From a virus, in the IMG/VR virus record IMGVR_UViG_3300028812_000003, positions 12,515-76,514 of that record: a stretch of 64,000 nucleotides of DNA. The stretch is one strand, 5' to 3'. The position numbers were made by a program, and so were the translations under genes. Shown one piece after another: positions 3,041-59,309 of the stretch. Under the pieces are notes generated by a model. It was not told the origin of the DNA and made no database searches. It worked only from the letters and a program-made list of their open reading frames with translations. The first letter of the stretch is position 1. Each line of letters starts with the position of its first letter.

Positions 3041-3066
3041 CGGCCGGCCAGACTCGCCAGGGTCCC

Positions 3067-3106
3067 GGGGTTGTGCGTCCCGGGGCCCTGTGGTTTAATT
3101 AAATCA
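3067..3106 (+). promoter_or_regulatory. Conserved promoter/operator copy 2
   Basis: TTGTGC (3071) -17- TTTAAT (3094). Confidence 0.75.
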
Positions 3107-3143
3107 ATGGCCGGGTGGACCGGCCGGGAACGAGGAACCGACC

Positions 3144-3731
3144 ATGAGCGCACCCCGCAAGGGCGGAGGCCACAGCAAGGGCCAGTCCATGCCGTACGCC
3201 GTCGTGTACGCGTGGGACGGCGACAAGCCGGTCCGAAACGCGAAGTGGACCCTGGGCGCGGCCGAGGCCGCGATGCTCGACACGCTGCGCGCCGCGAACG
3301 CGCGGGGCGGAGAGCTGGAGATCCGGGTCACCGACCGTGCGACCGGCGAGACCGTGGTGGAGCCGCAGCGCTGCGCCGTGTGCCGCGACCAGTGGGCCAC
3401 CGAACTCGGCCGCACCGACGGCGGGTACACGCTGTGCGGCACCTGCGACGAGGACGACCTGTCCGCCGATGAGCCGGTGACCCCGGCCGCGCCCGAACTG
3501 TCGGCCCCGCTCCTCGCGGCCCTCCGGGCCAAGGGGCTGGACCCCTCCGCGCGGCCGGACGGCACGGTGACCGTGACCACGAACGACATCGACTGGACGC
3601 TGCGCCCGGAGCCGCACGCGGTCACGGGCGAGCCGTGCGGCGTGTGGTCGGCCGTCGGCCCCGTCGGCTCGCGCGGCATGTTCGGCGCGTCCAACGCGGC
3701 GGAGTTCATCGCCCAGCGCACCACCCCGTAG
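3144..3731 (+). CDS. Hypothetical protein with two CxxC motifs
   Basis: 195-aa ORF, CAVC and CGTC, start motif present. Confidence 0.75.
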   Translation: MSAPRKGGGHSKGQSMPYAVVYAWDGDKPVRNAKWTLGAAEAAMLDTLRAANARGGELEIRVTDRATGETVVEPQRCAVCRDQWATELGRTDGGYTLCGTCDEDDLSADEPVTPAAPELSAPLLAALRAKGLDPSARPDGTVTVTTNDIDWTLRPEPHAVTGEPCGVWSAVGPVGSRGMFGASNAAEFIAQRTTP

Positions 3732-3798
3732 ACCTGGCGCACGACGGCCGGGGCACCGTCGCCCCGGCCCCACCGATCACGGAAACGAGGAACCGACC

Positions 3799-4395
3799 AT
3801 GACCAGGCAGACCGCCGCCCCGCTGGAACACGCCAGCCTGAACCCCTCAGCCCGTCAGGCGCGCGAAATCGCACGAACCGTCACCGAGGGGCACCTCCTG
3901 CTCAGCCCGCCGTACCAGCGCGGCAGCGTGTGGACGACCGACCAGCGCATCGCCCTGGTGGAGTCCTGGCTGCGCGGCCTGCCCGTTGGCGTTGTCATCC
4001 TCGCCGACCGGGCCACCGAGGAGTGGCGCACGGCCAACCCCGGCCGCGACCCGTACGAGACGGGCGGTGCCTTCTGGGCGGTCATCGACGGCCGGCAGCG
4101 ACTCACCACCGCGTGCATGTGGTTCGCCGGCGAGTTCGCCGTCCCCGCGTCATGGTTCCCGACCGACCGCATCGAATTCACCGAGGACACCTGCGACGGC
4201 CCGTACGTCCGGTACACCGGTCTGACCGTGCCGGGGCAGCGGATTTTCGCCAACCGAGCGCAGTTCATGGTCGCCGAGACGAAGGCGTGCGCGACCGAGG
4301 CAGACGAGGCCAGGTTCTACCTGCTGGTCAACGGCGGCGGCACGCAGCAGACCGAGGCCGACATGGCCAACGCGGCCCGCGTCGCGGGTCACTGA
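3799..4395 (+). CDS. Stand-alone DUF262 (GmrSD/ParB-superfamily) domain protein
   Basis: PYQRGSVW, VIDGRQRLTT and FYLLVNGGG match the DUF262 QR, DGQQR and FxxxN motifs. Confidence 0.85.
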   Translation: MTRQTAAPLEHASLNPSARQAREIARTVTEGHLLLSPPYQRGSVWTTDQRIALVESWLRGLPVGVVILADRATEEWRTANPGRDPYETGGAFWAVIDGRQRLTTACMWFAGEFAVPASWFPTDRIEFTEDTCDGPYVRYTGLTVPGQRIFANRAQFMVAETKACATEADEARFYLLVNGGGTQQTEADMANAARVAGH

Positions 4396-4667: not shown

Positions 4668-4731
4668 CACGACGGCCGGCCGGGAGCCGCGATCCCGGCA
4701 CCGCTCGCAGGCTCACGGGCCTGCGGCACAC

Positions 4732-4830
4732 GGGGCTGTAGCACAGTCAGGCAGTGCACCCGTGAAGCGCGTTCCTTGGTCGGTTCCCGCGCTCCGGGAG
4801 ACTCCGGTTCGAGTCCGGACAGGCCCACCA
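4732..4830 (+). ncRNA. tRNA-like RNA with extended anticodon arm ending in a 16-nt loop (TTCCTTGGTCGGTTCC)
   Basis: Acceptor GGGGCTG/CAGGCCC + A + CCA; T8A9; D-arm GCAC-AGTCAGGCA-GTGC; T-arm TCCGG-TTCGAGT-CCGGA; CCCG/CGGG stem extended by AGCGCG/CGCGCT. Confidence 0.85.
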
Positions 4831-4866
4831 CCGACAGACCACCGACGACCAGGGAAGTGAGGAAGC

Positions 4867-5535
4867 ATGAGCGCACGAGAGTGGGTCTACGCCCGGTTGA
4901 CCGGGGCCCGCATCAGCCCGGAAGACGCGGCCCGGAAGCTGGACGACTACCACGAGGAAGCGCGCCGGGAGATCCTGGGCAGCGACCTGAACCCCTCCAG
5001 CCTCGTGCTGGACGCGCAGGCGTACCGGCGGCTGCGAGACGGCATCCAGGCCACGATGGCCGACCCGGACCGGTGGGACCAGGACGGGGCTGAGGACTCG
5101 ATCCTGGCCGACTACGTGAAGTGGCTGGCCGACGGCAAGCCCGCGCGGGACGACGGCTGGGACGGGGAGATGCCTTCCCGGCAGACGCTGCCCGACGTCC
5201 TGCGGGGCGCGGCCGACCGGATCGACGCGGAGGACGTGCCGCAGACCGCCGAGGACACGGCCGACTTCTGTGACGGCGCCCGATGGGCCACGGCCCAACT
5301 GCGAGCCATCGCCGGCGAGGCGGACGCAGCGCCCGAGGACATCGGCTGGCTGCCCGACTGGCTGGCGGGGCTGGCCCGGGACCACGCCGCGTCGCTCCTG
5401 TCCGACGACGAGCGCGCGATCCTGCGCTACGCCGTGGGCCTCGCGCAGGAGCAGATGTTCTCGCGCGGTGACGAATTCACCGACGCCGACGAGGCGGCGC
5501 TGGAGTCGCTGAAGCGTCTCGCGGGCGAGGGGTAG
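4867..5535 (+). CDS. Hypothetical protein
   Basis: 222-aa ORF preceded by CGACCAGGGAAGTGAGGAAGC. Confidence 0.8.
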   Translation: MSAREWVYARLTGARISPEDAARKLDDYHEEARREILGSDLNPSSLVLDAQAYRRLRDGIQATMADPDRWDQDGAEDSILADYVKWLADGKPARDDGWDGEMPSRQTLPDVLRGAADRIDAEDVPQTAEDTADFCDGARWATAQLRAIAGEADAAPEDIGWLPDWLAGLARDHAASLLSDDERAILRYAVGLAQEQMFSRGDEFTDADEAALESLKRLAGEG

Positions 5536-7252: not shown

Positions 7253-7330
7253 GCCTGTCTCCCGGTTCCTCGGTCGGTGGTCCGGGATGAGCGTAGCGAG
7301 CGCCGGGCGGGCTCCGCCGGAAGGGTCGCG

Positions 7331-7370: not shown

Positions 7371-7416
7371 CCGGGACGGACGGCCGGACCGGCAGACCAC
7401 GGAACGAGGAACCGAC

Positions 7417-7692: not shown

Positions 7693-7725
7693 TCGAACCG
7701 GAACCGACCAGGGAACGAGGAAGAC

Positions 7726-8925
7726 ATGACGACGCACGCGCAGGCACCCGAGACGGCCCCGGCCCGCTTCACCACCACCCACCGCGAACTGTCCGACGCG
7801 TTGAAGACCGTGGCGCTCGGGGTCGCCGCCAAGCCGCCCGTCCCCATCCTGGGCGGGGTGATGGCCGAGACGTCCGACGGCGCGCTCACCTTGCGCGCGT
7901 TCGACTACGAGACTTCCGTGTCCGTCCGCGTGGACGGCGGGACGGGAGGCGACGGGGCCAGCCTGTTCAACTTCTACGACGCGAAGGACGTCCTGGCCGC
8001 CGCTGTCGCCGGCGAGAAGACGGCCGTGGCCGCCCGCACGCGAGTCACCGTGGACGACGGGACGCTGTCCACGCCGGACCTGGCGGTGCCGCTCAACACG
8101 CTGCCGCTGGAGGAATACCCGGCCTTCCCGCCGGACGCCCCGGGGCAGGTGACCGTGAACGGCGCGGAGTGGTTCGCGCGGGTGGCCCGTGTGCTGCCCG
8201 CCGCCGCCGGCCGGGACGACATGCTGCCGGCGCTGACGTACGTGCACCTGCGCATCGCCGGCGGAGTGCTGCGCCTGACCGCCACCGACCGTTACCGCGT
8301 CACCGTGGGCGAGGTGGAGGCGATAGACGGAGGCCGGGCGGAGACTGCCGCACTGGTGCCCGCGTGGCTGCTGGAAAAGATGTCCAGGCTGCTGGGCAGG
8401 CACACCGGCCCGGTCACCGTCGGGGTGATGGACGACTGGGTGACGTTCACCGTCGGAGCGGTGACGGTGACGGTGCGTTGCCCGGTCGCGGCGGGGGACT
8501 TCCCGGACCTGTGGGGCATGCTCCCGTCGGGGGCGTTGCCGCTGGCCGTGCGGGTGGACCGTGAGGCCCTGACGCGGGCGGTCCGCAAGGCTCACGCCCT
8601 GTCCAAGGCCAAGGGTCTCAAGGCGCCGCACGTGCTGCTGGAGTTCGCCCCGGCTGGCGTGACCGTCTCGCCGGGCCTGGACGACGGGGTGCAGGACCGG
8701 GTGCGCGGGGTCGCCGTGGGCGGCGAGGCGCTGGCCGGCGGGAGCCTGGACGCCCCGATGGTGGTGAACGGGGCGTACCTGCTGGACGCCCTCGGGACGT
8801 TCAACGGTCCGGCGGTGGTCGTCCACGCGCGGACCTCGCTCAAGCCGTTCGTCCTCACCGACGGCGAGGCCGTCACCGGCGAGGGCTTCGTGCACATGCT
8901 CATGCCGGTGCGGCTCAAGCGCTGA
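7726..8925 (+). CDS. dnaN: DNA polymerase III beta sliding clamp homolog
   Basis: PILGGV, LRAFDYETSV, EYPAFP, ATDRYRV, GDFPD, NGAYLLDAL, C-terminal LMPVRL; 399 aa. Confidence 0.9.
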   Translation: MTTHAQAPETAPARFTTTHRELSDALKTVALGVAAKPPVPILGGVMAETSDGALTLRAFDYETSVSVRVDGGTGGDGASLFNFYDAKDVLAAAVAGEKTAVAARTRVTVDDGTLSTPDLAVPLNTLPLEEYPAFPPDAPGQVTVNGAEWFARVARVLPAAAGRDDMLPALTYVHLRIAGGVLRLTATDRYRVTVGEVEAIDGGRAETAALVPAWLLEKMSRLLGRHTGPVTVGVMDDWVTFTVGAVTVTVRCPVAAGDFPDLWGMLPSGALPLAVRVDREALTRAVRKAHALSKAKGLKAPHVLLEFAPAGVTVSPGLDDGVQDRVRGVAVGGEALAGGSLDAPMVVNGAYLLDALGTFNGPAVVVHARTSLKPFVLTDGEAVTGEGFVHMLMPVRLKR

Positions 8926-9831: not shown

Positions 9832-9875
9832 CAGCCGGACACGCCGGCCGAGGACTACGGAAGAAGGAACCGACC

Positions 9876-10160
9876 ATGCAGCTCTCCCGCCAGGACATCG
9901 TCACCGCCGCCGAGAACATCGAGCTGAGCGAGGACGACTACAGCATCCGCGAGTCGTACCCGGCCAGCTACGGCGAGACCTGCGCCGGCGTCGTCCTCCC
10001 CAGCACCGGCGAGGTGACCGAGTTCATGGTCTCGCTCGCGCTGCTGCTCGCCGAGGACGGCCGGGGCGAGGACGCGCGGGAGCTGGCCCGCAAGACGCGC
10101 ACCGACTCGATGGGGTTCAGCACCATCGCCTACTGGGACGGCGTCGAGATCACCGACTGA
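9876..10160 (+). CDS. Hypothetical protein
   Basis: MQLSRQDIV..., 94 aa, GGAACCGACC-ATG. Confidence 0.8.
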   Translation: MQLSRQDIVTAAENIELSEDDYSIRESYPASYGETCAGVVLPSTGEVTEFMVSLALLLAEDGRGEDARELARKTRTDSMGFSTIAYWDGVEITD

Positions 10161-10187: not shown

Positions 10188-10258
10188 GCTCCCGTGGGAT
10201 AACGGATGTCCGCCGGGCCCTCAACCCGGAAGTGCCGGATCGTGACCGGCCGGGAGCA
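10188..10258 (+). tRNA. Atypical tRNA-Glu(CTC)-like gene
   Basis: Acceptor GCTCCCG/CGGGAGC; D-arm GGAT/GTCC; anticodon arm CCGGG-CCCTCAA-CCCGG; T-arm GCCGG-ATCGTGA-CCGGC; no encoded CCA. Confidence 0.75.
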
Positions 10259-10292
10259 CTCCCCGCACCCCCGACCAAGGAAAGCAGGACTC

Positions 10293-13810: not shown

Positions 13811-13843
13811 TCCTCGGTCTCCGTTCCCTGGTCCACTGCCCGG

Positions 13844-31489: not shown

Positions 31490-34400
31490 TCACCTCCCCT
31501 CGGTGGTGTGGACCCGGCGGGACAGCGCGGTCAGGACGCGCCGGTAGGCCCACTGGTCCAACTCGTCCTCGGTCAGTCCCTCGCTGAGCTGCGGGATACC
31601 CGCCGCGACGAGGGCGAGCTGCTGTCCGGCGGCCAGGGCCGTCTTCAGCTTGGGCACCGGGAAGCCGGGGACGTTCACGGCGAGCAGGCCGACGAGGCGC
31701 AGGTGACCGCCGATGCGACGCCAGTCGCCCGACACCTGCCCGGCCGCGCGCAGCTCGTGGATGCGCGACTCCGGGGTGCCGGGCCGCACGGACCCGGCGA
31801 CCCAGATGCCGTGCGCGTCGTTGCCCACCGCGACGTCCGCCACGGCGGCCCCGGTGTTGTCGTAGTGGTCAGCGGCGGCCCGGTGGCCGTACGACAGCGG
31901 CGCGTGCCCGGTGCCGACGGTGATCTGTCCGACGGAGGTGGTCCCGCCGTCGTCGCACCACACGTTGCCGGTCATGAAGTACGGGTGCGACTCCTCGTGC
32001 GGAGGCGTCACGCACACACCCTCCTGCCCGATGTGACAGGTGCCCCACAGGGCTGCGTGTCCGTAGACGCGGCCCTCCGGGGTGACGGTGATCCCGGTCG
32101 GGACGGACAGGGCCGGGCTGGCGAACCACGCGGCCGGCGGGCGCTGCGGCGCCTGCACCGTCAGGGACCGGAAGCGGGCCACCCGCGTCTCGCGCACCGC
32201 GCCGATGGGCTCGCCGCCGGCGACGACCGCGCCGTCCTCACCCAGCAGCGCGATGTACGCCTCCGCGAACGCCGGGATGTCCACGAGGGTCGCCGCGCGG
32301 ATGCGGCCCCGGTTGAACACGACCTTCTCCGGGGACGCGAACAGCATGTCGAACGGGTCGGGGCCCTCGCCGTCGGCGTCCGGGTCTGCGGGCCACACCA
32401 GTTCCATGTCGGCGTCCTTGATGGAGTCGACATCCACGCTCACACCGCGCAGGAACTGGCCCTTGATTTTCCCGTGGACGGTGCGGCCGTCGTCGGTGGA
32501 CAGGTCCAGCACGCCTTCGCCCATGATCAGGCCGCCGTCCTCGCGCCAGATGCGGTCGATCCGGCCCACGTTGACGGCGATGGTGCGGGGCTCCCCGCCG
32601 TGGGAGTCCTCCTTGTTCCAGCGCAGCGGCAGCGGCAGGTCAGCCCACGTGAGGGCGTCCGCCTTGAACTCCCGGCCGTCGCCGGTCTCGATACCCTCCA
32701 CCGTCAGCGGGCCACGCCACGGCGCCGTCTCGCCGTCGGCGCCTATCTCCGCAGCCGGCTTGCCCGCCACCCGGTCGGCGTCGGCAGCCGCGCCGTGCGC
32801 CAGCGCCTCGGCCTGCCCGGCTGCCTTCTGCTCGCCGACCGGGACGCACTCGCCGCTCTCCTCGTCCGGCTCCATGCCGGGCGGGCACTGCGCCTCCTCG
32901 CCGGCTGCCGACTGGTTCTCCTTCAGCCGCTTGTCCTTCTTCGTGCCGGGGTTCGGCTCGCCCTTGCCCAGGGCCTCGGCCGTCTCGGTCGCGCTCGTCA
33001 CGGTGCTGTCTCCCTCCGCCGCGTACAGCGCGGCCAGTTGATCATCGGCGTCGTCTTCGGTTGCGTGGCAGCCGGACACCGATCCGTCGGCGTCCTTGAC
33101 CACGGCCCACGGCTTGCCGTCCGGACACCCAGAATGGCCCTCCACTTTGTGCCAGGGCATGCCGGTCTCCTCTCCGCTCGCCGTGGTCGCCGTACGTACC
33201 TCCTGCCAGACGGCGACGATGAAGCCACGGCAGGCGTTGCCGTAGCGGGCGCCGGTGCAGTCCCGGTAACCCATGACCGGGTACTCCGCGACGGCGGCGT
33301 CCAAGGTGGTGAAGGTGCGGCCGTCGATGACCTTGCACGGGCCGCACGTCCGGCTGTCCAGGATCTCGCTCGCCACGTAGGTGGAGGCGGGCGGCGCGGC
33401 CTCCATCACCGCGTGCCGCCCGGCGTTCTGCGCGGCCGTCATGGCCGAGCCGACCGAGGCGCGCACCCCGGCGTCGTCCATCGTGGCCAGCTCCCGGTCC
33501 ACCTCCGCCGCCACCGTTTCTGCCGGGGCCGAGGACCGCAGCAGCCCGGACAGTTTCCGCTTGGCCGCCTGCACGAGGGCGGAGGCTGCGAGGTCGGAGG
33601 TGAGCCGGGCGACGGAGGTGAGCAGTCGCCGTCCGCCGACCCCTGCGGTGAGTACGTCGGGGCCGTCGCCGTCCTCGGGCAGCGACCAGTCCGGCACGGT
33701 CACGCCCTGCGCCTCGGCCTCCCGTTGGCAGGCCCTGCCGGCCTTGACCGCGTACTCCTCCATGAGGCCGGTCAGGGTGGCGGTGGCGTCCAGGGTGGAT
33801 AGCGTCAGGTCCGGCAGCAGTTCAGGGTCGTCGGCGGCGAGGTGCTTGACGATCTGCTCGCGCAGATCCAGGCGCCACGCGGCCGTCGTGGACTTCAGCG
33901 CTTGGACCGCCCCGGCTGTCGCGGCCTCCCACTCGGCGTGTACCGACGCGAAGTCGGCGCGGCTGGACAGCTCCAGGTCGGTCGGCTCCCGGCGCAGCGG
34001 CCCGCCAGCGGCCGTCACCGCGTCGCCGGACAGCGGGATGTCCCGGTCGTCATCGCCGAAGCTGAGCCGGATGCGGTCGAACGTCACCGGGCCCAGCCGC
34101 TGCTCCAGTTCAGGCAGGAGCGCCGGGTCGTCGCTGTAGGCAGCGCAGACGTGCGCGGCCCACGGGCTGTGCTGCTCGGGGATTTCCGGGAGGTCCATCG
34201 TCATGGTGAGTGCGGTCCCAGCCAGAACCCGGGCTTCCACGAGGGAGCCGCCCGCAGGCTCTGCATCCCGATCGTCGCCGACGGACCACACCCAGCACGG
34301 GTAGTCCCCGCCGCCGTTCCAGTGAGCGGCGCCGAACGCCCTCGCTTGTACGGTCGGCAGCCCCGCGACGAGATTCCTTACTCGGCTCTCCAGCGTGTCG

Positions 34401-34684
34401 CGCTGGTCCTCGGTCCAGGTGGCGCCATCGTCTCCGAGGAAGAACAGCGTCAGGTGCAGTTCGTCAGCCGGCTCGCCGCCGGGCACCGCGAGGCGTTCGG
34501 CGTCCTCGGCCGTCGGCATGAGGGCGATCATGCAACCCTGCGTGTGCGAGCCGTCGGCAGCGGCCGTCAGGACTGGTGGGTGCGGGTGAGACTGCCGACG
34601 GACCACGGCCACGGCGTCCGGCGGAAGTTGCCCGCGCAGCAGGTCCCCACCCTCGTTGACTTCCACCTCAGCGTGCTGCTCCAT
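31490..34684 (-). CDS. Multidomain head protein: 2H-phosphoesterase-like + MuF-like + capsid maturation protease
   Basis: ELHLTLFFLG and AAHVCAAY; DSRTCGPC...NACRG; EGIETGDGR, GVSVD, ATLVDIPAF, SGDWR. Confidence 0.75.
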   Translation of the reverse strand: MEQHAEVEVNEGGDLLRGQLPPDAVAVVRRQSHPHPPVLTAAADGSHTQGCMIALMPTAEDAERLAVPGGEPADELHLTLFFLGDDGATWTEDQRDTLESRVRNLVAGLPTVQARAFGAAHWNGGGDYPCWVWSVGDDRDAEPAGGSLVEARVLAGTALTMTMDLPEIPEQHSPWAAHVCAAYSDDPALLPELEQRLGPVTFDRIRLSFGDDDRDIPLSGDAVTAAGGPLRREPTDLELSSRADFASVHAEWEAATAGAVQALKSTTAAWRLDLREQIVKHLAADDPELLPDLTLSTLDATATLTGLMEEYAVKAGRACQREAEAQGVTVPDWSLPEDGDGPDVLTAGVGGRRLLTSVARLTSDLAASALVQAAKRKLSGLLRSSAPAETVAAEVDRELATMDDAGVRASVGSAMTAAQNAGRHAVMEAAPPASTYVASEILDSRTCGPCKVIDGRTFTTLDAAVAEYPVMGYRDCTGARYGNACRGFIVAVWQEVRTATTASGEETGMPWHKVEGHSGCPDGKPWAVVKDADGSVSGCHATEDDADDQLAALYAAEGDSTVTSATETAEALGKGEPNPGTKKDKRLKENQSAAGEEAQCPPGMEPDEESGECVPVGEQKAAGQAEALAHGAAADADRVAGKPAAEIGADGETAPWRGPLTVEGIETGDGREFKADALTWADLPLPLRWNKEDSHGGEPRTIAVNVGRIDRIWREDGGLIMGEGVLDLSTDDGRTVHGKIKGQFLRGVSVDVDSIKDADMELVWPADPDADGEGPDPFDMLFASPEKVVFNRGRIRAATLVDIPAFAEAYIALLGEDGAVVAGGEPIGAVRETRVARFRSLTVQAPQRPPAAWFASPALSVPTGITVTPEGRVYGHAALWGTCHIGQEGVCVTPPHEESHPYFMTGNVWCDDGGTTSVGQITVGTGHAPLSYGHRAAADHYDNTGAAVADVAVGNDAHGIWVAGSVRPGTPESRIHELRAAGQVSGDWRRIGGHLRLVGLLAVNVPGFPVPKLKTALAAGQQLALVAAGIPQLSEGLTEDELDQWAYRRVLTALSRRVHTTEGR

Positions 34685-40346: not shown

Positions 40347-40392
40347 GGCGGGTTCCTTCTTCCTTGGTCTGTCGGTCCGGTACCCCGTCCCG

Positions 40393-43508: not shown

Positions 43509-43535
43509 GGCCGTTCCTTCCTTGGTCGGGTTCCT

Positions 43536-49375: not shown

Positions 49376-50194
49376 TCAGGTGGTGGCCGGCTCGGGCAGC
49401 AGGCCGTGCTCACGAGCCTTGCGCAGGGCGGCGGGGCGGCGGTCGGCCTTGTCCATCCACGCCACGTCCAGGCGCCGGTACGCCTCGCTCAGCCGCGTGG
49501 ACAGGGTCCCCGGATGCATCTTCAGCTCACGTGCCGCCTCGGAAAGGGACGCCCCGTCCTCTAGCGCTACGAGTACTCTCACCTGCGTGTCCGTGAGGGT
49601 GACCGGGTTGGTTCGGACGACGCGGGGTTCCGGCATCCGCAGGCGGAGCAGACCCCGGGCGGCGGCCTCGCGCAGCGCGGCCTCACGGCGCACCGTCTGA
49701 GGCAGGTGGCTCACCCCGAGGGCCGCATAGGCGGACGCGGTGAGTTCCTTGACGACCTTCTGACTGACGCCCCAACGGGTGCAGATCTGCGCCACCGTGC
49801 GGCCGGCGTCGAACGCGCGCAACAGCCGTGTCTCGGCCTCGGACAGGGTCACCCGGCGGTTGCGCAACGCGGCCTCGGTCTCGGCCCGCTCGCGGTTGCC
49901 GCGTTTGCACGCCGCGCAGATCGCCTCGTCCCGCTTGATGTGGCGGCGGTAGGCTGCGAGCGTCCCGCAATCCTCGTACGGGCCGATGTGCCCGGCCAGC
50001 AGACCGTTGCGTACGGCCTGTGCGGCCGTGGACGCCCCGAGCTGACGGTAAATGCGATTGCAGGAACTCTTGACCCCGACGGACGTGACGCCCGTCTCCC
50101 GTGCGATTACTTCGCGGGGGCGGCCGACGGACAGCAGCCACAGCAGCCGGCGCTGGCGCTCCGTCAGGACGATGGGCTGAAGTGCTGCATCCAC
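49376..50194 (-). CDS. Regulator with three LuxR-type HTH repeats and an internal CGT..Y..H..CxxC motif
   Basis: LTERQ, LSEAE and LTDTQ repeats, each ending in Y..L(G/D). Confidence 0.75.
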   Translation of the reverse strand: MDAALQPIVLTERQRRLLWLLSVGRPREVIARETGVTSVGVKSSCNRIYRQLGASTAAQAVRNGLLAGHIGPYEDCGTLAAYRRHIKRDEAICAACKRGNRERAETEAALRNRRVTLSEAETRLLRAFDAGRTVAQICTRWGVSQKVVKELTASAYAALGVSHLPQTVRREAALREAAARGLLRLRMPEPRVVRTNPVTLTDTQVRVLVALEDGASLSEAARELKMHPGTLSTRLSEAYRRLDVAWMDKADRRPAALRKAREHGLLPEPATT

Positions 50195-50344
50195 GGGACG
50201 CCCCTCTCGTAGATTGGGTTGGACCCCGGGCCACGTCCACTGGCCCGGGGTCCTTGTCGACCGGCGACGGCCCGGGGTCGTTCCGCCGGGTCTGGCCGGG
50301 ACACTCATTTAGTTAAATCCCCGTTCCATGGTTTTGCTAAACCA

Positions 50345-51424: not shown

Positions 51425-51612
51425 GGACACCCCTTGTTCCGTGGTCTTTGATCGTGGCGGCAGGGTAGCCACGGACCGGGGAATCGCCGAACGGCCTGGA
51501 AAACGCGGGAACCGCCCGGTGCGGCGCCGGGCGGTTCCAGAGCTGAGGCGGCGTCAGACCGCCGTCTGCTGTGTCGTACCCACGAGGGCGGCGGGCTACT
51601 CCCGAACCCGAG

Positions 51613-58617: not shown

Positions 58618-59309
58618 GCAGCGTCCTCCGCCGGTACCGGGTTGGCCTCGACGACGGCCCGGATGGCCTCGACGACGGCCCGGATGGCCTTGAGGGACGG
58701 GGTGTCGTGCGGGGCCGGGCGGTCCGGGGTGACGCTCAGCCCGAACTGGGTCCGGCGGGCGACGCCAGGGGCGACGAAGTACGTCAGGTCGTACTGCCAG
58801 CGCCGGCCCTCGTCGGCCGCCCGGCCCACCCGGAGATTCAGGGCGAAGCCGTCGTCGCGCGGCGCCCACGCCTGCTGCGTGGTCCAGCCGTTGGCCTCGG
58901 CGAGCGCGAACAGGCCGGCGACCGGCTTCGGCAGTGCGTAGCCCTCGGGCGCCGTGTCCGTGATGCCCGCCCGGAGCCTGCGCTCCGTGGTGTCCCGTGC
59001 GTGCTTCTCGGCCGGGGTCAGGACGTTGTCGCGTTCCAGGGCTGCGTCCAGGGTGGCGGTCCGGCCGCTGTAACGGCAGGTCCACCCGATGCCGGTTGCG
59101 TCCCGGATCGCCGGACGGCGCTGGCCGTCGATGTCCCACGTCGACTTCGGCTCGTGCGTGCCCAGCGTGCCGCCACGGTCGACGCGCGCCGTGTTGCCGC
59201 ACGGGCACATGGCCTCGACGCAGCGCAGCAGCTCGGACCACAGGTTCGGCAGGAGTATCGCCGGGTCGTGCTTCGCCCCGGTGGCCAGGGCTTCCAGTGT
59301 CGTCGTCAT
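58614..59309 (-). CDS. Hypothetical protein
   Basis: MTTTLEALA..., GGAGG RBS. Confidence 0.7.
   Translation of the reverse strand: MTTTLEALATGAKHDPAILLPNLWSELLRCVEAMCPCGNTARVDRGGTLGTHEPKSTWDIDGQRRPAIRDATGIGWTCRYSGRTATLDAALERDNVLTPAEKHARDTTERRLRAGITDTAPEGYALPKPVAGLFALAEANGWTTQQAWAPRDDGFALNLRVGRAADEGRRWQYDLTYFVAPGVARRTQFGLSVTPDRPAPHDTPSLKAIRAVVEAIRAVVEANPVPAEDAA
58643..58690. repeat. Perfect in-frame 21-bp tandem duplication (AIRAVVE x2)
   Basis: TGGCCTCGACGACGGCCCGGA twice plus TGGCCT. Confidence 0.9.

Follow-up and report, generated by a model that had tools for sequence, protein, structure and literature searches.

A tRNA-shaped RNA gene with a loop antisense to the leaders of non-virion genes in Streptomyces phage-plasmids

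Introduction

Why would a virus keep a gene that folds like a tRNA when the place of its anticodon loop is taken by a sequence complementary to the start regions of the virus's own genes? This question is raised by a 99-nt RNA gene at positions 4732-4830 of a 64,000-nt window, which spans bases 12515-76514 of a 76.5-kb soil virus record in IMG/VR (IMGVR_UViG_3300028812_000003); positions given below are those of the window unless another record is named. A preliminary description of this DNA, made by a model from the letters alone, had proposed that a stable tRNA-like scaffold presents an antisense guide to a whole set of phage genes. Here, we report that the RNA gene recurs in Streptomyces phage-plasmids, that the core of its loop is the same in every copy found, and that it occurs together with a two-box leader motif with which the loop can pair. 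Judging from sequence comparison, we consider it probable that the RNA acts in trans as an antisense RNA, held in a natural tRNA scaffold, by pairing with the leaders of non-virion genes.

Results

The RNA has the body of a tRNA (Table 1), and the preliminary description had read it correctly, from the acceptor stem with its single G:G mismatch, T8A9, the GG of the D arm, the T-loop and the encoded CCA to the perfect AGCGCG/CGCGCT helix that closes the loop at 4772-4787. Under laxer filters, the Rfam tRNA model RF00005 scored the RNA at 43.4 bits against a gathering cut-off of 29, and a single-sequence fold gave the cloverleaf. In the Rfam alignment, a 32-nt insert stands where the anticodon loop belongs. 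The fold check suggested in the preliminary description therefore came out positive with Rfam but negative with ARAGORN, which called neither a tRNA nor a tmRNA for 4732-4830 when run on the window; an Rfam run over the whole window at gathering thresholds also missed the RNA. It is like a tRNA in its acceptor, D and T arms, in U8, in its UUCGAGU-type T-loop and in its discriminator and CCA, with a cloverleaf that scores above the family cut-off. It is unlike one in its anticodon arm, where a 4-bp proximal stem, a bulge and a 7-bp helix carry a loop of 16-19 nt; the 5-bp stem and the 7-nt loop that would contain U33 and the anticodon are missing. At position 3:70 it has G-C, whereas G.U is the identity pair of alanine tRNAs.

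Other RNA families fit the RNA less well. The Y RNA-like YrlA model (RF02553) gave 15.2 bits against a cut-off of 69 (E 1.4), which places the RNA outside that family, and the Rfam C4 model had no match at its gathering threshold, nor any up to E 10 around the locus. With only 99 nt, a simple hairpin and a negative ARAGORN result, the RNA is not a tmRNA. The single ARAGORN call in the window is a tRNA-Glu(CUC) gene (10188-10259, +), and 14 nt beyond it begins a box 1 leader (10273) of the kind described below; the Rfam gathering run over the whole window missed this tRNA as well.

Searching first with the loop, the leader and a loop-free pattern and then with a covariance model, we obtained 14 copies of the RNA and aligned 13 of them. 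The carriers are Streptomyces phage-plasmid records of about 90-100 kb, several of which have terminal repeats and are rated 100% complete. These elements encode ParA, DnaN, a primase-polymerase, a sigma factor and a complete head-tail module, and by this gene content they are Streptomyces phage-plasmids. A scan of viral contigs for the exact 16-mer yielded 38 stretches, of which 37 were unrelated and lay mostly in apparent coding sequence. Weaker covariance-model matches in the relatives (15-24 bits) were not tRNA-like by ARAGORN and were dropped. A host tRNA as the origin of the RNA body was likewise rejected, no host tRNA being similar beyond T-arm fragments.

The alignment supports the cloverleaf. 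Across the 13 copies, 97.5% of cells are paired, compared with 28-50% in slid controls, and none of 500 shuffles matched the observed values. Six pairs are altered on both sides; they fall in the acceptor, D, proximal anticodon and T stems, and the proximal anticodon stem changes from CCCG/CGGG to CGCA/UGCG. The distal helix is unchanged across 12 distinct sequences, and the A.C pair next to it in the window copy is G-C in the relatives. Conservation is uneven along the gene: 34 of 73 columns are invariant in the tRNA body (pairwise identity mean 76%, minimum 63%) and 27 of 33 in the module of distal helix and loop (mean 91%, minimum 82%), where the variable columns are the loop flanks only. 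The body also varies in other ways: four aligned copies (L060, L067, L068 and L084) and a fifth of this type in L129 have a degenerate D arm, two copies lack the encoded CCA, and one relative has the T-loop UUCAACU where the others have the UUCGAGU type.

The loop is 16-19 nt long across the family, on a 7-bp helix, and its 14-nt core (CCUUGGUCGGUUCC) is invariant. The preliminary description had taken all 16 nt as the guide; the antisense loop stands, and what the relatives conserve is the 14-nt core alone. Because one search pattern left the loop free (N14-24) and every match in the viral and genome collections still had the same core, this invariance is not an artefact of how the copies were found. 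No differing core was returned by body-only patterns, by loop-free patterns (viral and genome collections) or by patterns for the upstream hairpin (metagenome and viral collections); all gave copies with the same core, the one exception being an unrelated low-GC contig that has the hairpin and lacks the RNA.

These data bear on whether the gene could be a working tRNA from which the 32-nt insert is spliced out, which we regard as extremely improbable. At 32 nt, the insert falls far short of a group I intron, has no bulge-helix-bulge motif and is the most conserved part of a gene that ARAGORN does not call, and removal of the hairpin would leave about 4 nt with no U33 and no anticodon; by inspection, no 7-nt anticodon loop can be regenerated, and an intron-containing tRNA was rejected. 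Splicing would agree with the Rfam tRNA score above cut-off and with a 1058-aa head-region protein whose N-terminus matches an RNA-ligase PHROG. This protein (31490-34666, -) matches the PHROG annotated as RNA ligase over residues 25-214 (E 6e-30), and its C-terminal part is portal- or head-maturation-like.

The counterpart of the loop is a leader in front of start codons. When all motif copies of two complete genomes were aligned, the leader resolved into two boxes, GACCAAGGAA..GAGGAA..(GGAACCGACC)ATG. Box 1 (GACCAAGGAA) is followed by c-GAGGAA, a likely Shine-Dalgarno sequence, and then often by CCGACC right before the ATG; box 2 (GGAACCGACC) abuts the start codon. The complement of the loop, GGAACCGACCAAGGAA, corresponds to box 2 and box 1 merged over their common GACC. 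The preliminary description had read this complement as the leader itself: the complementarity is there, but the leader consists of two boxes and the complement of the two fused.

The motif is far more frequent than expected. GACCAAGGAA is the most over-represented 10-mer of the genome, with 25 exact copies in the 76.5-kb record and 40 in a 98-kb relative (0.0 expected), and GGAACCGACCATG occurs exactly 6 and 4 times in the same two records (0.0 expected). In the window, GACCARGGAA with at most one mismatch has 27 matches against 5.1 expected, a count reached by 0 of 100 shuffles, and the full 16-mer with at most three mismatches has 6 against 0.55 expected. The recurrence of a motif before non-virion starts, as first described, is borne out by the 27 matches and by the virion genes checked, which lack the leader. 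The sites singled out then, at 2132-2146, 7700-7717, 7265-7278 (-) and 43518-43534 (-), were all recovered, as was the second register at the starts 1061, 3144, 3799 and 9876. Among the copies listed there with a single C mismatch, those at 7395-7404 and 51437-51446 were as stated, and the one near 3778 has two mismatches.

From eight genomes, we gathered 310 distinct leaders. In most of them, the start codon of a reading frame (ATG or GTG) follows the end of box 1 after 10-11 or 13-14 nt, and in the window the motif strand follows gene direction. By gene counts that rest on a crude gene call based on third-position GC content (GC3), the leader is carried by 31 of 84 genes here and by 42 of 130 in the relative, or about a third; the tape measure, major head, portal and terminase genes, which were checked, are without it. 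The leader is thus of the start-associated sequence (SAS) type, being asymmetric, in one orientation, 5' of starts and attached to non-structural genes.

Table 1 Features of the RNA gene, its surroundings and the leaders, with carriers of the RNA in other records.
Feature	Position	Strand	Details
tRNA-shaped RNA gene	4732-4830	+	acceptor, D and T arms of tRNA; encoded ACCA
Acceptor stem	4732-4738/4820-4826	+	7 bp, single G.G at 4:69; then U8 A9
D arm	4741-4757	+	4-bp stem, GG in loop
Extended anticodon arm	4759-4798	+	4-bp proximal stem, 2-nt bulge, A.C pair, 6-bp distal helix
Proximal anticodon stem	4759-4762/4795-4798	+	4 bp, CCCG/CGGG
Distal helix	4766-4771/4788-4793	+	AGCGCG/CGCGCT, preceded by A.C
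16-nt loop UUCCUUGGUCGGUUCC	4772-4787	+	core 4774-4787 antisense to leader boxes 1 and 2
T arm	4803-4819	+	5-bp stem, loop UUCGAGU
Discriminator A and encoded CCA (ACCA)	4827-4830	+	
Upstream element with 7-bp GC hairpin	4668-4699	+	stem 4679-4685/4693-4699; begins right after upstream stop codon
AT-rich promoter-like module and palindrome	3066-3110	+	TTG-17-TTTAAT as read; putative promoter
Box 1 leader, exact copies	1038-1047; others at 1832, 2135, 9380, 9543, 10273, 10873	+	
Box 1 leader	40360-40369; others at 13824, 41541, 43267, 43518, 44509, 58414	-	
Box 2, GGAACCGACC abutting ATG	3134-3146; also 1051-1063, 3789-3801, 9866-9878	+	
Leader and start of gene 3' of RNA	4847-4869	+	box 1 variant GACCAGGGAA, ATG at 4867
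dnaN leader	7700-7728	+	best predicted target; Pfam DNA_pol3_beta domains
ParA-like gene leader	7253-7282	-	ACCGACCGAGGAAC, one G.U; Pfam CbiA/ParA match below cut-off
GACCACGGAA leaders	7395-7404; 51437-51446 (-)		
Carrier: plasmid pS1D4-14.2 of Streptomyces sp. S1D4-14	NZ_CP041606.1 89341-89438		
Carriers: contigs of Streptomyces sp. NRRL S-455, S. africanus NRRL B-24243 and Streptomyces sp. NPDC017936			

The loop is the exact reverse complement of the box 1 10-mer and of box 2, and the predicted pairing has two registers. In the first, 8-10 bp form with box 1 (GACCAAGG), 17-24 nt before the start codon. In the second, 11 bp form with box 2 and the A of AUG (-20.9 kcal/mol), and 12 of 13 positions pair when the duplex is read on through the AUG. 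The complementarity to the ribosome-binding region of a target that marks C4-type RNAs is therefore present in the predicted pairing of both boxes. The duplex with the dnaN leader has 16 contiguous pairs, including one G.U (-30.0 kcal/mol), and that with the ParA-like leader reaches -25.3 kcal/mol. At a threshold of -16 kcal/mol or below, the real loop pairs with 45 of the 84 start regions in this record; 200 shuffled loops paired with 13.4 ± 6.9 on average and with 40 at most.

Substitutions in the leaders follow the pairing in part. Among 117 one-mismatch variants, changes that keep wobble pairing prevail at box 1 positions 3-5 (C>T in 18 of 21, A>G in 12 of 15), and leader G positions that face a loop C hardly change. 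The tendency to A-to-G substitutions that preserve G-U pairing, as first described, holds at these positions but not at position 6, where A>C (39) exceeds A>G (15).

Several observations weigh against an antisense role. The position 6 change, which creates a central mismatch (GACCACGGAA), is the commonest variant, found in 39 of the 117 one-mismatch leaders and in 39 of the 310 distinct leaders (about 13%). Such leaders stand before varied genes, a nucleotide-sugar epimerase gene in three genomes among them, and one leads the gene immediately 3' of the RNA in 9 of 13 relatives; they may escape the RNA, or position 6 may be read by something other than the RNA. Leader positions 9-10 stay AA even where the loop flank of a genome is AA, AG, GA or AU in place of UU; some of the leader is therefore under a constraint of its own, which on this comparison comes from something other than the RNA. 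The positions with the constant AA resemble a second Shine-Dalgarno-like AAGGAA. Moreover, neither the loop core nor the leader varies among the copies found, these copies belong to related genomes, so that co-occurrence and substitution counts are not independent events, and the fold stability of the single sequence is unremarkable against shuffles (z -0.95).

The leader could instead be a DNA site for a regulatory protein, the copy in the RNA gene being an extra operator or a decayed tRNA with a palindromic insertion. This appears very improbable to us: the motifs lie at a fixed short distance from starts, occur within operons too and are without exception on the coding strand, all four tRNA stems are maintained by compensatory changes, and in 11 of 13 copies the loop, read on the reverse strand, differs at positions 9-10 from the consensus of the leader. 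It would account for a distal helix that is invariant in sequence, not merely in pairing, and for the part of the leader that is conserved independently of the loop. We also rejected mimicry of rRNA, as the loop has one 8-mer in common with Streptomyces 16S (chance about 0.2), which lies in a paired region, and the host genome has loop-like 14-mers in numbers close to those of controls. A reverse-strand open reading frame of 37 codons, with a GTG 12 nt past the motif, was set aside because positions 9-10 and the start are lost in most copies.

RNA and leader occur together in every complete relative, and three records without the RNA hold few leader copies or none. Each RNA-bearing record holds 11-42 exact motifs, compared with 0-2 for a reversed-pattern control. 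In one whole Streptomyces genome, a 92-kb contig has 36 motif copies and the other 8.8 Mb have 26, of which 6 are of the GACCAAGGAA form; the leader is private to the element. Wherever a viral contig found by the leader alone has several copies, it has the RNA as well. Among named phages the nearest is Streptomyces phage ZL12, in which motif and RNA are both absent, as they are in a related contig that is 60% complete (G009); a contig that is 52% complete (G003) has two motifs and no RNA. The preliminary description had named the loss of the RNA with retention of the leader as a refuting case, and no complete genome presents it, although these related genomes represent few independent events.

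An RNA unrelated to the leaders is another possibility, either as a decoy for host tRNA-targeting defences or as a replication RNA of the plasmid-prophage, with the loop match as a by-product. Some extrachromosomal actinophages need non-coding RNAs beside parABS for replication (PMC7157519), and here a ParA-like gene lies about 1.8 kb from the RNA. We nevertheless find such a role doubtful and quite improbable, as it leaves unexplained why a loop with 14 invariant nt should be exactly complementary to a 10-mer present 25-40 times per genome, and why RNA and leader strictly co-occur. The neighbour genes of the RNA also vary between genomes.

Turning to expression of the gene, neither a sigma-70-like promoter nor an intrinsic terminator was called in the flanks of the RNA gene. 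A search of sequencing runs for this DNA gave soil-metagenome DNA sets only and no RNA set. The 32-nt upstream hairpin element is kept in 13 of 13 aligned copies though the upstream genes differ, and it occurs once per genome, always beside the RNA. The nearest promoter-like sequence is the AT-rich module at 3066-3110, and no further AT-rich stretch lies between it and 4732. Given that the RNA has no promoter or terminator of its own and that this module is the nearest, co-transcription with three upstream genes followed by excision is most likely, and the module probably drives the RNA-containing operon. An exact 25-nt copy of the hairpin element is present in an unrelated, lower-GC viral contig of 44.5 kb (L131 4060-4084, -), where a ribosome-binding site and an ATG follow it directly and no tRNA-like RNA is close by. 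On NZ_CP041606.1, RefSeq locus tags skip from FNV66_RS01225 to RS01215 across the RNA site, so the original record may have an RNA gene (RS01220) annotated there. A 310-aa protein (49376-50308, -) matches phage sigma-factor PHROGs and is a candidate driver of the leader-less virion genes.

Modules of the same build (TTG, 17 nt, TTTAAT and the palindrome TTTAATTAAA) stand 8-30 nt upstream of box 1 in about 15 leaders. This arrangement bears on whether the same pairing might activate translation, by protecting the 5' end or by tethering the ribosome through a tRNA body that replaces the Shine-Dalgarno contact. With about 15 leaders just 3' of promoter-like modules, box 1 may be at or near the 5' end of the mRNA; the GAGGAA Shine-Dalgarno sequence is a separate element further downstream, which box 1 need not block, and a full tRNA body exceeds what stability alone seems to need. 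We still rate activation as rather unlikely. Pairing with box 2 covers the spacer and the first base of the AUG and should block initiation, and the arm, about 6-7 bp longer than a tRNA anticodon arm, should not fit a normal ribosomal tRNA site, as far as its structure can be predicted. The copies with a degenerate D arm indicate in addition that the full tRNA shape is not strictly kept.

Discussion

Our results are best accommodated by an antisense RNA in a tRNA scaffold. We propose that the RNA would be transcribed as part of an early operon and released by host tRNA-processing enzymes, with RNase P acting at the 5' end and trimming or CCA addition at the 3' end; RNase P, the 3' trimming enzymes and the CCA enzymes recognise the tRNA shape, and from this we infer maturation of the tRNA type. 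The tRNA fold would make the RNA long-lived, and the 11-bp arm would present the large loop so that its invariant 14 nt could pair with the phage's private mRNA leader. The duplex would mask either an upstream standby site or the start codon together with the spacer and the 3' part of the ribosome-binding site. As the stable RNA builds up, translation, and perhaps stability, of 30-40 leader-bearing non-virion mRNAs would fall. The outcome could be an early-to-late switch that favours virion genes with plain ribosome-binding sites. Alternatively, it could be silencing or immunity in the plasmid-prophage state, or silencing in a superinfecting relative. We favour repression since a duplex with box 2 would extend from the end of the ribosome-binding site across the spacer into the start codon. 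Our preference over activation is modest, and the sign of the effect is the weakest step of the scheme.

If the proposal is true, one small RNA controls a third of the phage's genes, and actinobacterial phage-plasmids may possess an RNA-based timing or immunity system. The pair of leader and RNA could also act as an orthogonal translational switch for Streptomyces engineering. A literature search on the leader motif or on tRNA-like antisense RNAs in Streptomyces phages found nothing relevant.

The known target of the C4 RNA of the phage-plasmids P1 and P7 is a single site in its own operon, whereas 30-40 leaders genome-wide are predicted targets here. C4 is nevertheless the closest functional analogue, and from the comparison the RNA at 4732-4830 is not a member of that family. 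Both are encoded by phage-plasmids and act, or are predicted to act, through loops. As far as the passages on C4 in one article go, RNase P cuts C4 from a longer transcript (PMC5320573, citing Hartmann 1995 and Citron & Schuster), one of its loops partly occludes a ribosome-binding site, the other pairs upstream, and the structure is a three-stem-loop RNA. Excision by RNase P, known for C4, is predicted for the RNA described here, which differs in being a full cloverleaf with no Rfam C4 match and in using one loop with two registers where C4 uses two loops. The opening statement of the preliminary description that no such system had been described was too strong in view of this analogue, at least on what that article reports of C4 (PMC5320573).

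The architecture has a parallel in the engineered tRNA scaffold of Ponchon and Dardel, in which an insert takes the place of the anticodon loop and the chimeric product is reported to undergo tRNA-like processing and to build up as a stable RNA (PMC3753655, PMC3401473). The insert replaces the anticodon loop of a tRNA body in both cases. The scaffold is a laboratory design, unlike the present gene, which is natural and under selection with an antisense payload and which would, if our proposal holds, be the natural counterpart of that design.

The leader resembles the SAS and the extended start-associated sequence (ESAS) of cluster K mycobacteriophages. SAS is a conserved asymmetric motif that overlaps or extends the ribosome-binding site a few nucleotides 5' of non-structural starts and is often preceded by a module of promoter and inverted repeat; an RNA or protein partner has been proposed as a possibility (PMC3203893, PMC11373665, PMC12699233). 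It has had no known partner since 2011 (PMC3203893), and its role was still called undefined in 2024 and 2025 (PMC11373665, PMC12699233). A 2024 paper describes the cluster K ESAS as a SigA-like promoter plus inverted repeat; the AT-rich module with palindrome 5' of about 15 of our leaders is its counterpart. Like SAS, the present leader is confined to non-structural genes, lies a short distance before starts and has one orientation. The SAS consensus, in contrast, is GGGATAGGAGCCC, a single box 3-9 nt from the start, compared with GACCAAGGAA..GGAACCGACC here, and SAS is without a described partner RNA, whereas for the comparable leader described here a specific candidate partner exists that is itself conserved.

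According to Pope et al., each K1 mycobacteriophage has a single reverse-oriented SAS away from gene starts. In Adephagia (JF704105), we found this reverse SAS (58682-58694) in the 12-nt loop of a 13+6-bp hairpin (58661-58711; z -3.0), closed by GCGCG/CGCGC and located within a 432-bp non-coding gap between genes 92 and 93. The hairpin region is conserved in 137 cluster K records, and from seven diverse copies we derived a consensus of two hairpins, in which eight pairs are changed on both sides. An anti-SAS loop is present in Adephagia, Anaya, Peanam and Amelie; the loop reads CCUCCUUCCCC in Ekdilam and DarthP and is unrelated in Hurricane. Anaya, Amelie, Ekdilam, DarthP and Hurricane have 13-15 forward SAS core copies each, the last three 15 apiece. 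K3 and Amginevirus phages retain SAS without an anti-SAS hairpin loop. On these comparisons, the cluster K anti-SAS hairpin is a real parallel and not a universal one. A wider conjecture, which we put forward tentatively and think unlikely, is that the RNA at 4732-4830 is the trans-factor of a start-associated sequence system: its tRNA body would dock on the ribosome or a processing enzyme, and its 14 nt would serve as a 'super-anticodon' that selects or deselects mRNAs. Analogous anti-leader RNAs would then exist in other actinophages, with the K1 anti-SAS hairpin as a second case. Set beside these systems, the proposed antisense RNA has a design that is unusually clean and testable.

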